Part shown: positions 7,525 to 61,115 of the stretch, piece by piece
Position numbering within the stretch: the stretch's first letter is position 1
Layout: every line of letters starts with the position of its first letter
From: Dehalococcoidia bacterium
GTDB taxonomy: Bacteria; Chloroflexota; Dehalococcoidia; UBA2979
Assembly: GCA_963667465.2 (NCBI GenBank)
Contig: CAXXDN010000001.1
Span: forward strand, 704,001-768,000
Length of the DNA: 64,000 nt
Direction of reading: 5' to 3'
Notes under the pieces: model-generated
Seen by the model: the letters and a program-made list of their open reading frames with translations, nothing else
Told to the model about the DNA's origin: nothing
Databases searched by the model: none
Translations under genes and position numbers: made by a program

Positions 7525-7562
7525 CCCCCTCACCCCGCCCCTCTCCCGCGAGGGGAGAGGGG
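7525..7562 (+). repeat. REP-like palindrome (CCCTCACCCnnCCCTCTCCC-n4-GGGAGAGGG)
   Basis: CCCCCTCACCCCGCCCCTCTCCCGCGAGGGGAGAGGGG hairpin; family recurs across the window. Confidence 0.8.
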
Positions 7563-44499: not shown

Positions 44500-44542
44500 C
44501 CGCCGCCCCACGCGATCCGGCCGCGGTCCGGCCTCAATCCGG

Positions 44543-44580
44543 CCCCCTCTCCTGGGGGAGAGAGGGTGGGGGTGAGGGGG
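44543..44580 (-). repeat. REP-like palindrome (intact copy near the IS110)
   Basis: CCCCCTCTCCTGGGGGAGAGAGGGTGGGGGTGAGGGGG. Confidence 0.8.
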
Positions 44581-44627
44581 AGAAGCCACGGGTGGCGCGA
44601 CTTCCCGAGGACGCACCTCGGCTTGTC

Positions 44628-44737
44628 GTGGGGGGCGCAGCCCCCCACACCCCCACCCCGGACGAGCACGCTGCGCGGCTCGGGCCCACCCACCCGCCCT
44701 CGGAGTTTCTTTCTGTGGGGGCGCAGCCCCCACGCCC
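44628..44737 (+). repeat. About 110-bp dispersed element bounded by GGGGGCGCAGCCCCC hairpins, copy A
   Basis: Aligns with the reverse complement of 61006-61115. Confidence 0.8.
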
Positions 44738-44809
44738 TCCTCGGAGGTTTCGGGGGCGCATCGTCCGGCCCCCTCTCCTGGGGGAGAGACACCCCAGGGT
44801 GCTAAGGCG

Positions 44810-46033
44810 TCAAGCGGCGAGCTGTTCGCGGTCGTGGCGGTGCGCCCAGGCGGTGGCCTCGTCGTAGGGGCGACGTGCCTTCAGGCAGCCGTGGAGGTAG
44901 CCGACGAGGCGGTTGCCGAGAGCGCGCAGCGCCTGGTGGTGGAGGTCGCCCGCGGCGCGGCGGCGGTGGTAGAAGTCATGGCAGCCGGGGCTCGCCTGCA
45001 GCGAGCAGAGCGCCCAGCGGTCCACGGCGTCGGCGAGCCGGCGGTTGCGCACGAAGCGGGCGCGCACGCTGCGCTTGCGGCCCGATGCTACGGTGAGCGG
45101 CGAGGTGCCGGCGTAGTTCCTGCGGGACTTCGCCGACTCGTAGCGTTCGGGGTCGTCCCCGAACTCGCCGAGCACCCGGGCGCCGAGCACGACACCGAGA
45201 CCGGGCAGGGAACGGTAGATTGCGGCGTCCGGGTGCTGCTCAAAATGGCTCGTGAGCGCGGCCTCGAGCTCCGTAAGCTGACGGTTGATCTCGCTGATCT
45301 GCGCGACCGCCGCGCGGGTGCTCGCGGCGAACGCCCGGCTCACGGCAGGCGGCGCCTCGAGTTGCGGGGAGCGCAGCGCGTCGCGCACCGCGGCGGCGCG
45401 CCGCTCGAGGTTGCGCTGACGTCCGCCGCGGCGCAGCGCCGAGCGGATCTTCGACGTGCTCAGGCGCGCCGCCTCGCGCGGCTCGCTCGCCCGCGCCAGC
45501 ACGCCCAGGGCGTCGCCGTGCGCGAGGCTGGGGAAGGCCTGCAGGGCAGCCGGGAAATACTCCCTGAGGGCGTTGCGCAGCCGGTTGGTCTGGCGCACGC
45601 GGTCCCAGATCAGCTGCTGGTGGGCGCGGGCGAGGATGCGCACCGCGGCAGCCTCGTCGCTGTCGCCGGCCAGCGGACGGTGGTTGTGGCGGTCGGTGCG
45701 CACGAGGTCGGCGAGCAGCTTCGCGTCGGCGGCGTCGGACTTGGCGCCGCCCAGGTGGTGACGCTCACGGTAGCGCGCCGCCGAGCGGGGGTTGATCGCG
45801 TAGACGCGGTAGCCGGCCGCGAGCAGGGCCGTGACCCAGGGTCCGCGGTCGGTCTCGATGCCGACCACGACCGCGCCCGGGTCTGAGGCGTGCTCGGCAA
45901 CCAGTTCGTGCAGCACGGCGACGCCCGCGACGCCCTCGGGCAGCCGCCTGGCGGCGAGCCGTTCGCCGGCCTCGTTCATGAGCTGGACATCGTGGTGGTC
46001 TTCGGACCAGTCGTCACCGACGTAGAGGGTCAT
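44810..46033 (-). CDS. IS110 DEDD recombinase/transposase
   Basis: YVGDDWS, VGIE, KSDAADA (RuvC-like), SLPGLG, YAGTSPLTVASG (Tnp-domain Ser), ALRALGNR. Confidence 0.95.
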   Translation of the reverse strand: MTLYVGDDWSEDHHDVQLMNEAGERLAARRLPEGVAGVAVLHELVAEHASDPGAVVVGIETDRGPWVTALLAAGYRVYAINPRSAARYRERHHLGGAKSDAADAKLLADLVRTDRHNHRPLAGDSDEAAAVRILARAHQQLIWDRVRQTNRLRNALREYFPAALQAFPSLAHGDALGVLARASEPREAARLSTSKIRSALRRGGRQRNLERRAAAVRDALRSPQLEAPPAVSRAFAASTRAAVAQISEINRQLTELEAALTSHFEQHPDAAIYRSLPGLGVVLGARVLGEFGDDPERYESAKSRRNYAGTSPLTVASGRKRSVRARFVRNRRLADAVDRWALCSLQASPGCHDFYHRRRAAGDLHHQALRALGNRLVGYLHGCLKARRPYDEATAWAHRHDREQLAA

Positions 46034-46049
46034 CGTGCCTCGCTTTCCT

Positions 46050-46265
46050 GCGCTTCGTGCTGCTGTTTGCGACCTGCCGGGCTGGTCCTGCGACGGCCTA
46101 ATGGACCAGTGCTCTCGGGCACGACACCCCAGGAGTGCTGTGGACCACCCGGACGCACCAGCCGGGGCACGGTCTCTCCCTGGAGATCGCAGTGTCTCGG
46201 GGAGGGGCAGTGCTCACCGGCCGGCCGGTCCAAGACCAGTCTCCCAGATCGCTCCAGGGTCCGGT
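46050..46265 (-). ncRNA. Candidate IS110 bridge RNA (boundaries approximate)
   Basis: Target loop TGCCCCT (46209-46203) and GGGAGAG (46180-46174); donor loop CCTGGGGTGTC (46133-46123) and CCATTAG (46104-46098); these match the target and circle-junction sequences. Confidence 0.8.
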
Positions 46266-46445
46266 CGAACCCCATTAGGGGGGGGGTGAGGGGGCGCGCC
46301 CGGCGCTGCTCGCCGCTGCTCGCCGCAGCGATCGGTTGTTGCGCCCTCGCGGGTGCTCGCCCGGCGGGCGTCGGGAGTTGGTGCGCCCTCGATACTCCCG
46401 AGGGGGCGTGTGGGGGCGCAGCCCCCACACGCCGGACGCGCGCGG

Positions 46446-61005: not shown

Positions 61006-61115
61006 GGGCGTGGGGGCGGAGCCCCCACATGAAGGAAATCCGAGGGTGGGTGGGTGGGCCGGAGCGGCGCGCAGCGCACGCTCGTCCGGGATGGGGTGTG
61101 GGGCGCAGCCCCCGC
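61006..61115 (-). repeat. About 110-bp dispersed element, copy B
   Basis: Reverse complement aligns with 44628-44737. Confidence 0.8.

Follow-up and report, generated by a model that had tools for sequence, protein, structure and literature searches.

An IS110-group element and its copies

The minus strand of the 64-kb stretch of Dehalococcoidia DNA analysed here (the window, whose coordinates are used throughout) carries an insertion sequence of the IS110 group between positions 44787 and 46278, flanked on both sides by a CT core. Its sole long open reading frame, the recombinase gene (44810-46033, minus strand), is preceded by a 5' non-coding left end of 243 nt (46034-46276, minus strand) that encodes a predicted bridge RNA, and the whole element sits in a hairpin resembling a repetitive extragenic palindrome (REP) in a genome of two contigs (2.97 Mb, 71% G+C). 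We describe the anatomy, copy number and site specificity of the element, the stems of its RNA, the covariation between its guides and DNA, and the fold of an AlphaFold2 (AF2) model of its protein, giving guide and flank sequences in element orientation. These observations leave us highly confident that it is an intact and complete IS110-group insertion sequence of the known bridge-RNA type that has probably been active recently.

The limits of the element were set from the ends common to ten full copies in the genome (identity 99-100%), which are joined by one copy truncated by a contig end and by six short weak matches. All ten copies carry the 2-bp core CT on each side of the integrated element, at an identical core-to-core distance of 1,490 bp that comprises the element and one core. 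At the left core (46277-46278), CT is followed by AATGG in 10/10 copies and the junction reads CACCCCCCCC-CT-AATGG(GG), with the left target (LT) lying upstream, from 46279 up. At the right core (44787-44788), CT is preceded by GGGGTGT, again in 10/10 copies, and the junction reads CCTGGGGTGT-CT-CTCCCCC, with the right target (RT) CTCCC at 44786-44782. A single CT is present in unoccupied REPs (..CC-CT-CTCCC). The genome also holds a second, distinct IS110-family element of ~1.5 kb in three copies (L013 at C2:26930, L014 at C1:460108 and L015 at C1:223676), which has other ends and flanks and matches PF01548 with 142.5 bits; the left flank of one of these copies ends in a GCGCAG palindrome.

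The recombinase

The predicted protein of 407 aa combines a DEDD RuvC-like domain with a Tnp domain. The whole PF01548 profile (DEDD_Tnp_IS110) was matched by residues 5-161 (E 6.9e-38), identifying the N-terminal DEDD RuvC-like domain, and PF02371 was matched by residues 273-356 (E 7.1e-11), identifying the C-terminal Tnp domain. In addition, the NCBIfam model NF033542, "IS110 family RNA-guided transposase", scored 185.8 bits (cut-off 140). The open frame extends over 467 aa in all 10 copies, with no stop within the N-terminal domain match. The AF2 model has a moderate mean predicted local distance difference test score (pLDDT) of 68.4, falling below 50 over residues 287-329, and the Foldseek matches ranked 1-10 are all ISCro4 (9t56) or IS621 (8wt6, 8wt9) synaptic complexes, with E values of 9e-10 to 6e-8, template modelling (TM) scores by target of 0.60-0.65 and 17-18% identity.

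Residues D7/D8, E60, D100, D103 and S317-G318 do not vary across an alignment of 14 sequences with identities of 70% or more, and the motif context in this alignment makes them putative catalytic residues; S317 falls in the part of the model where pLDDT is below 50 (287-329). The catalytic residues given for IS621, in the part of that report available to us, are D11, E60, D102, D105 and S241-G242 (PMC11208158).

The recombinase has a weak NCBIfam match to the TIGR-Tas RNA-guided endonuclease (30.7 bits, cut-off 100), and Foldseek also returns TIGR-TasR (9mty) and Nop5/Nop56/58 box C/D proteins for its model. A preprint reportedly proposes kinship between IS110 and Nop5, with which these fold matches fit. 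Within the gene, the Rfam family Ms_AS-4 (RF02464, "Actinobacteria sRNA"), the sole Rfam hit to exceed its threshold, matches 45128-45209 on the plus strand with 65.1 bits (gathering score 50), antisense to the recombinase gene across the conserved Tnp-domain coding region; this family may be no more than a model of the strand opposite to transposase genes of the IS110 family.

Layout and stems of the predicted bridge RNA

To place the element among its relatives, we gathered 90 loci, of which 10 are the genome's own copies and 80 come from genome records, with protein identities of 65-92%. The closest related records are metagenome-assembled genomes (MAGs) of Dehalococcoidia, in agreement with the Chloroflexota host suggested by a first-pass annotation of this DNA, and the remainder are mostly Actinomycetota. 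The left end of the window element aligns over 63 distinct orthologous left ends, and on this alignment five helices were examined, namely a 5' stem-loop and the outer stem and inner hairpin of each of two internal loops.

The 5' stem-loop (46236-46264; helix 1) has arms at 46264-46261 and 46239-46236, with 3/4 pairs changed on both sides and 96.4% of cells paired. It is followed by the target-binding loop (TBL), whose outer stem joins a 5' strand at 46210-46225 to a 3' strand at 46157-46170 (helix 2; 9/14 pairs changed on both sides, 98.8% of cells paired). Enclosed by this stem are a 5' internal loop, UGCCCCUCCCC (46199-46209), whose last 9 nt form the left target guide (LTG), an inner hairpin, GAGA...UCUC (46183-46198; helix 3, 5/6 pairs changed on both sides), and a 3' internal loop, CAGGGAGAG (46174-46182), which holds the right target guide (RTG). 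In the donor-binding loop (DBL), the 5' strand of the outer stem, GCAC (46135-46138), pairs with 46094-46090 with one C bulged (helix 4), and the pair at columns 183:229 is G-C in 39 and A-U in 22 of the 63 sequences. The DBL 5' internal loop, UCCUGGGGUGUC (46123-46134), holds the left donor guide (LDG), and the 3' side, UGGUCCAUUAGGCC (46108-46095), carries the right donor guide (RDG). Between them stands the inner hairpin GUGC-CCGAGA-GCAC (46109-46122), which is uninformative for covariation because its stem is invariant in 63/63 sequences.

Over the five helices, 98.3% of 2,008 cells are paired and 18/32 pairs are changed on both sides, values reached by 0/500 shuffles on any measure. When the 3' partners were slid by 1-3 columns as a control, pairing dropped to 20-47%. 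The stems are thus supported by compensatory changes. The layout also recurs across the 90 loci, of which 88 have the donor-loop motif, 86 the target-loop anchors and 84 the inner hairpin; the target loop has 11 nt on its 5' side and 9 nt on its 3' side, ending in AG, in 74/84 elements. A scan of the left end against Rfam 15 returned no family at E <= 1, and no bridge-RNA model was matched.

RNAalifold, also run on the alignment, pairs the left-end CUAAUGG (46278-46272; columns 3-9) with the right donor guide CCAUUAG (46104-46098; columns 218-224) in 63/63 sequences. This pairing is the complementarity between guide and donor seen within one strand. One could speculate that the right donor guide might be masked within a read-through transcript carrying the element's first bases, but not within a transcript from the putative junction promoter described below.

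Target-loop guides covary with the insertion sites

Covariation between guides and DNA was scored on 84 elements with 61 distinct target loops, whose donor ends are common to all and whose flanks differ widely. Left out were L034 and L071, which gave no donor-loop match, L039 and L097, in which the target-loop anchors are missing, L067 and L092, with inner stems shorter than 4 bp, and any flank missing at a contig end.

The LTG of the window element is CCCCUCC followed by a core-facing CC (46207-46199). Across the 61 distinct loops, the LTG is identical to its own LT at 5.00 of 7 non-core positions, as compared to 2.28 after permutation (maximum 2.80 in 2,000 permutations), and identity to the left flank and core ranges from 0.46 to 0.97 per position, climbing toward the core. 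The register of this guide is defined by one sharp peak: among 69 guide/flank pairs the score is 6.67/9 at shift 0 and 1.83-2.99 at all other shifts, and the 52 pairs with targets unlike the REP score 6.69 at shift 0 and 1.58-2.50 elsewhere. Against the ten sites occupied in its own genome, the LTG of the window element is identical at 6-8 of 9 positions (mean 6.9). The core-facing dinucleotide of the 61 loops is CU in 42, CC in 11, CA in 4 and another in 4.

The RTG, GGGAGAG (46180-46174), is the reverse complement of CT-CTCCC, and its AG is invariant. It matches its own RT at 4.72/7 positions (permuted 2.58, maximum 3.00 in 2,000 permutations), and across 67 pairs the match is 91-99% at +1 to +4, 55% at +5, 12% at +6 and 22% at +7. 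Covariation at the target is unchanged when one pair per loop is kept and in the 52 pairs that are not REP-like.

Donor-loop guides and a handshake base

Two occurrences of the 11-mer CCTGGGGTGTC are found in the window, one in the right end of the element and one in the second loop of the RNA; shuffles give an expectation of 0.01, and at least two occurrences were found in 0/100 of them. The LDG, UGGGGUGU plus C (46131-46123), lies in this match. Across the family, its identity to the right end is at least 0.85 at positions -8 to -1 and at the core C, and 0.19-0.33 farther out. Position -4 is the sole variable one, with guide/donor combinations of A/A in 30, G/G in 22, G/A in 10 and A/G in 0 of 62 elements, an asymmetry that would be expected for an rG:dT wobble if the RNA is paired to the bottom strand. 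The RDG, CCAUUAG (46098-46104), is the reverse complement of CT-AATGG and has 100% identity at the core and at +1 to +4, 91% at +5 and 0-17% beyond (23 distinct pairs).

A DBL handshake guide follows at 46096-46097, and its first base, G (46097), is the complement of the C at target position -1. Across the family, complementarity between LT(-1) and the base that follows CAUUAG holds in 56/58 distinct pairs (permuted mean 38.2, maximum 47 in 5,000 permutations), and both exceptions are G opposite T. The second handshake base gave no signal (15/58 pairs, as compared to 14.2 permuted). The available part of the IS621 structural report describes a handshake guide, with which the base found here agrees (PMC11208158). 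A candidate counterpart in the TBL, AC at 46172-46173, is complementary to the last two donor bases, GT, is AC or AU across the family and is proposed from IS621.

These results bear out much of the first-pass annotation, which had proposed an IS110-group element with a 5' bridge RNA. Protein profiles, fold, loop layout and covarying stems agree with it; the strings it quoted are all present on the minus strand, with the GAGA...UCUC hairpin in the first loop and GUGC...GCAC in the second; its CT core recurs in 10/10 copies; and three of its four guides, the RTG (GGGAGAG), the LDG (..UGGGGUGUC) and the RDG (CCAUUAG), were correctly placed. The covariation of guide and target that it had put forward as a check is present for both target guides, at 5.00 and 4.72 as compared to 2.28 and 2.58 permuted. 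Folding of the left end, another of its proposed checks, did not reveal the two loops, and its left target guide was out of register; both points are taken up below.

The REP hairpin and the choice of insertion site

The REP-like hairpin consists of CCCTCTCCC, a short loop and GGGAGAGGG, plus an asymmetric CCCCCTCACCCC arm, and a strict pattern for it finds 68 copies in the genome as compared to 0-3 in three shuffled genomes. All ten full copies of the element occupy this one REP, at one position and in one orientation, in line with the REP targeting suggested in the first-pass annotation, which had proposed a check of other copies for the same REP position. Their left flank is ...C(T/G)CACCCC-N-CC or a near variant, followed by CT, the element and CT, and their RT is CTCCC in 9/10 copies and AACCC in 1/10. 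AACCC also follows a second, independent insertion, so that two elements whose right guide reads CTCCC, L010 in this genome and L018 in a Dehalococcoidia MAG, have this RT; it could mark an off-target site that is repeatedly tolerated, or else a variant of the REP.

The core lies within the 5' arm of the REP stem and, since the stem is palindromic, CT-CTCCC is present on both faces of the REP. Among unoccupied sites in the genome, the left 7-mer is CCCCGCC at 40 on the face that is used, and CGGCCCC at 41, CGATCCC at 20 and CGGCTCC at 12 on the opposite face. If the faces were used at random, with a share of about 0.4 for this one, we calculate a chance of about 2e-4 (the tenth power of 0.4) that ten copies would all lie on it. 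The presence of all 10 copies on one face thus indicates that the left flank is being read.

The guide of the window element has U at position -3. No perfect match to CCCCUCC is found among the 504 unoccupied CT-CTCCC sites (0/504), 42 of which differ at one position, and the genome's single perfect left target, CCCCTCC, is already occupied (copy L002). At the ten occupied sites, the guide U stands opposite G five times, A and C twice each and T once. Of the CCCCNCC-CT-CTCCC sites, 3/5 with a base other than G at -3 are occupied, as compared to 4/44 with G (Fisher p = 0.017); this comparison is post hoc and a lead only, and covers 7 occupied sites, with L007, L009 and L010 excluded as not CCCCNCC-CT-CTCCC. 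With its U at -3 and its core CC, the guide is an imperfect fit to the common REP variant and a better one to rare variants. If this is true, the mismatch between guide and REP would put a built-in brake on copy number, and insertion may be gated by the REP stem on the right-target side.

Related elements in Dehalococcoidia also use this hairpin. L022-L027, L032 and L075 are aimed at the same REP face as the window element, with G instead of U at -3, and the left guides of L018-L021 and L033 fit the opposite face of the same REP (LT CCGGC[CT]CC or CCGGTCC). One could see in them a natural retargeting series, in which related elements reach either face of one REP hairpin through a change in the left guide only, a reading that, together with the brake on copy number, we consider doubtful at present.

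An unoccupied REP copy, read directly and belonging to the same family, lies at 44540-44582, ~200 bp from the occupied one. Unoccupied copies of the target REP in the window are found at about 7540, 42205, 44546 (the copy just mentioned) and 60933. A second palindromic repeat, GGGGGCGCAGCCCCC, stands on both sides of the element, at 44631, 44717 and 46412, and a shorter form lies at 61100. The genome contains 18 exact copies of this repeat and 21 of its shorter core.

Points against RNA-guided insertion by an intact element, and alternatives

Several observations weigh against reading the element as an intact, RNA-guided insertion sequence. No circle junction was seen, nor any empty allele of this exact locus, and a search of sequencing runs found no RNA run that contains the element. 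Contigs from four sequencing runs do skip parts of the locus, one (X9) passing over 1,490 bases from 44786 to 46277 and three (X2, X3 and X4) over 1,717 bases from 44560 to 46278; these were not counted as empty sites because their shorter sides are only 23-24 letters long (the likeness threshold being 90), and they may come from other REP copies or other organisms. At the target, the LTG of the window element faces the core with CC, a minority state (11/61 loops) as compared to CU (42/61), its U at -3 is mismatched at 7/10 occupied sites (G at 5, A at 2), and one occupied site has the RT AACCC. The single-sequence fold of 46034-46280 reaches -109.1 kcal/mol, as compared to -107.5 +/- 5.4 kcal/mol for shuffles (z = -0.29), and the minimum free energy fold of the single left end lacks the two-loop layout; since single-sequence folding does no better than shuffles, it is the covariation that carries the structural argument. 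Finally, HMMER searches with the single protein and with the 14-sequence profile found no IS110 recombinase among PDB sequences, and the kinship with IS621 is therefore argued from the fold and from the Pfam and NCBIfam matches.

The alternative that best withstands the data is dual recognition, in which the sequence is picked by RNA pairing while insertion is also gated or enhanced by the REP hairpin, here on the right-target side, as proposed for ISPpu10. It would account for the location of 10/10 sites in a hairpin arm, for the tolerance of the -3 mismatch at 7/10 sites and of two RT mismatches at one site that still has a REP-like context, and for the use of the other face of the same hairpin by sister elements of related MAGs. 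However, 52 of the 69 family pairs lie at sites that are not REP-like (hairpins were not looked for there), and the geometry differs in that the ISPpu10 stem-loop, as far as the source covers it, contains the LT and lies 5' of the core. We regard dual recognition as less likely than not.

The ten copies might instead have amplified recently and since become inactive or weakened, owing to the core CC of their guide and to its U opposite the usual G of the REP. The minority state of that CC and the want of a perfect CCCCUCC match among the 504 unoccupied sites fit this account. However, the copies are 99-100% identical and their frames are open in all 10, pointing to recent activity with this very guide, and the 42 sites with one mismatch remain available. 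We consider inactivation or weakening of the copies improbable.

A different register for the left guide is far less plausible still. The first-pass annotation had taken UGCCCCU, at loop positions 1-7 with core CU at 6-7, as the LTG, making GCCC-CT-CTCCC its ideal target and the unoccupied REP at 7525 (near 7540; LT CCCGCCC) the best match. The string is indeed present in the loop, one CT-CTCCC site in the genome is within 1 mismatch of it, and the C-richness of the element sets the two registers only modestly apart on its own ten sites (means of 5.1 and 6.9 of 9). However, across the family this register (shift -4) scores 2.62/9 as compared to 6.67/9 for the last 9 nt of the loop in 69 pairs, and 2.33 as compared to 6.69 in the 52 pairs that are not REP-like; on the ten sites it matches 5-6 of 9 positions, and the G that it requires at -4 is present at 0/10 of them. 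UGCCCCU shares only CCCCU with the left target and core of the window copy (CCCCCC-CT). Because the LTG occupies loop positions 3-11, CCCCUCC-CC, the REP near 7540 is not its best match, and the perfect CCCCTCC site, that of L002, is occupied.

Equally hard to sustain is recognition of the REP hairpin or its sequence by the protein itself, with the RNA-DNA matches as by-products of similarity between ends and REP: the target does lie within a stem-loop, and a target stem-loop adds specificity in ISPpu10 according to the available part of a preprint (bioRxiv 10.64898/2026.03.19.712850), but orthologues that share these donor ends are inserted at unrelated sites without a palindrome, with loops changed to match (52 pairs), the handshake base tracks target position -1, and one face is used by all copies though both offer the same hairpin. 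Guidance by the bridge RNA of an intact element remains the reading that we follow below.

A putative promoter at the circle junction and a proposed mechanism

A -35-like TTGACG lies in the right end of the element (44808-44813, minus strand), overlapping the stop codon, and is matched by a TCTAAT that spans the junction formed when the two ends meet. Joining of the right to the left end creates TCTAAT in 60/60 distinct end pairs, with TTGACN 17-18 nt upstream in 58/60. We infer that TTGACN-17/18-TCTAAT is a putative promoter formed only at the circle junction; a promoter split in the same way across the circle junction is described for IS621 by Durrant et al. (PMC11208160, available in part).

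By analogy with the IS621 and ISCro4 literature, from which transcription, circle formation and catalysis are carried over here, the element would leave its site as a circle closed by a single CT between its right and left ends. This junction would assemble the TTGACG-18 nt-TCTAAT promoter, which would then drive transcription of the left end into a bridge RNA of ~190-240 nt, followed by the recombinase gene. Of the two internal loops of this RNA, the donor loop would pair with the circle junction and the target loop with one face of the REP hairpin, and the base that follows each right guide would provide a handshake with the other DNA. Strand exchange at the CT core by the DEDD/Ser recombinase would place the element within the 5' arm of the REP stem with a CT at either end, which is the arrangement found in the window.

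Relationship to known systems

REP targeting by IS110-family elements has reportedly been known since 2006. The bridge RNAs of IS110 elements, with their CT core, two loops and REP targets, have already been published, as the available parts of two reports describe (PMC11208160, PMC11208158), and the REP targeting of ISPpu10 is currently being dissected (bioRxiv 10.64898/2026.03.19.712850, likewise available in part). Plasmid records returned only the generic name "IS110 family transposase". In the literature we found nothing specific on this element in Chloroflexota or Dehalococcoidia; the supplements of large surveys were outside this search and may list the family.

Orthologues, with protein identities spanning the 65-92% given above, occur in Dehalococcoidia MAGs (L018-L033, L075) and in Actinomycetota, including Mycobacterium and Rhodococcus (L036-L097). 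They share the donor ends CT-AATGG.. / ..TGGG[GA]TGT-CT, the donor loop and the RNA architecture, and they differ in their target loops and targets, with 61 distinct loops. Some depart from the usual length: L030, L051, L055 and L091 are longer (1,573, 1,812, 1,800 and 1,609 bp, respectively), and in L030, L051 and L055 the sequence continues past the stop codon without reaching the right end, while L075 is shorter (1,340 bp) and has a shortened gene match. The value of the window element is that of a clean, quantified natural example in a high-GC Chloroflexota lineage. Together, one fixed donor and 61 target loops provide a natural data set on reprogramming, from which rules for guide length, wobble, core pairing and the handshake can be read, and the corrected register of the left guide changes which REP copies count as predicted targets.

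ISPpu10 and ISPpu9 of Pseudomonas putida, as far as the sources describe them, resemble the window element in being multi-copy IS110 elements with every copy at one REP position, with CT duplicated and with a stem-loop overlapping the target, and differ from it in belonging to another phylum and using another REP family. The "different repeat family" of the first-pass annotation adds little as a finding, REP targeting by IS110 elements having long been known. The geometry differs as well: here the core is in the 5' arm, with the loop and the 3' arm downstream of the RT, whereas the stem-loop of ISPpu10 is 5' and includes the LT, according to the part of the preprint available (bioRxiv 10.64898/2026.03.19.712850).

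The likeness to IS621 and ISCro4 extends to most features of the system. As in the published accounts, which are again available in part, the bridge-RNA sequence lies 5' of the recombinase gene with the target loop first and the donor loop second (PMC11208160, PMC11208158), left guides are directed at the bottom strand and right guides at the top strand, and the CT core, the handshake base, the putative promoter split across the circle junction and the REP target are all shared; the AF2 model has the same fold as 8wt6, 8wt9 and 9t56. In contrast, the proteins are only 17-18% identical in structural alignment, with no HMMER match in PDB, and the window protein has 407 aa as compared to 305-319 residues in the matched PDB chains. 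The guides differ in several respects: in the family of the window element, the RTG reads 4-5 bases past the core, pairing of the LDG with the core stops after its first base since the one that follows is the invariant inner-stem G, and the LTG of the window copy faces the core with CC. In addition, the RDG is a contiguous 7 nt here, whereas that of IS621 is discontiguous, with 9 RNA bases to 7 DNA bases, in the part of the report at hand (PMC11208160). The mechanism is one that is already known, and the element adds another member to the bridge-RNA IS110 group.

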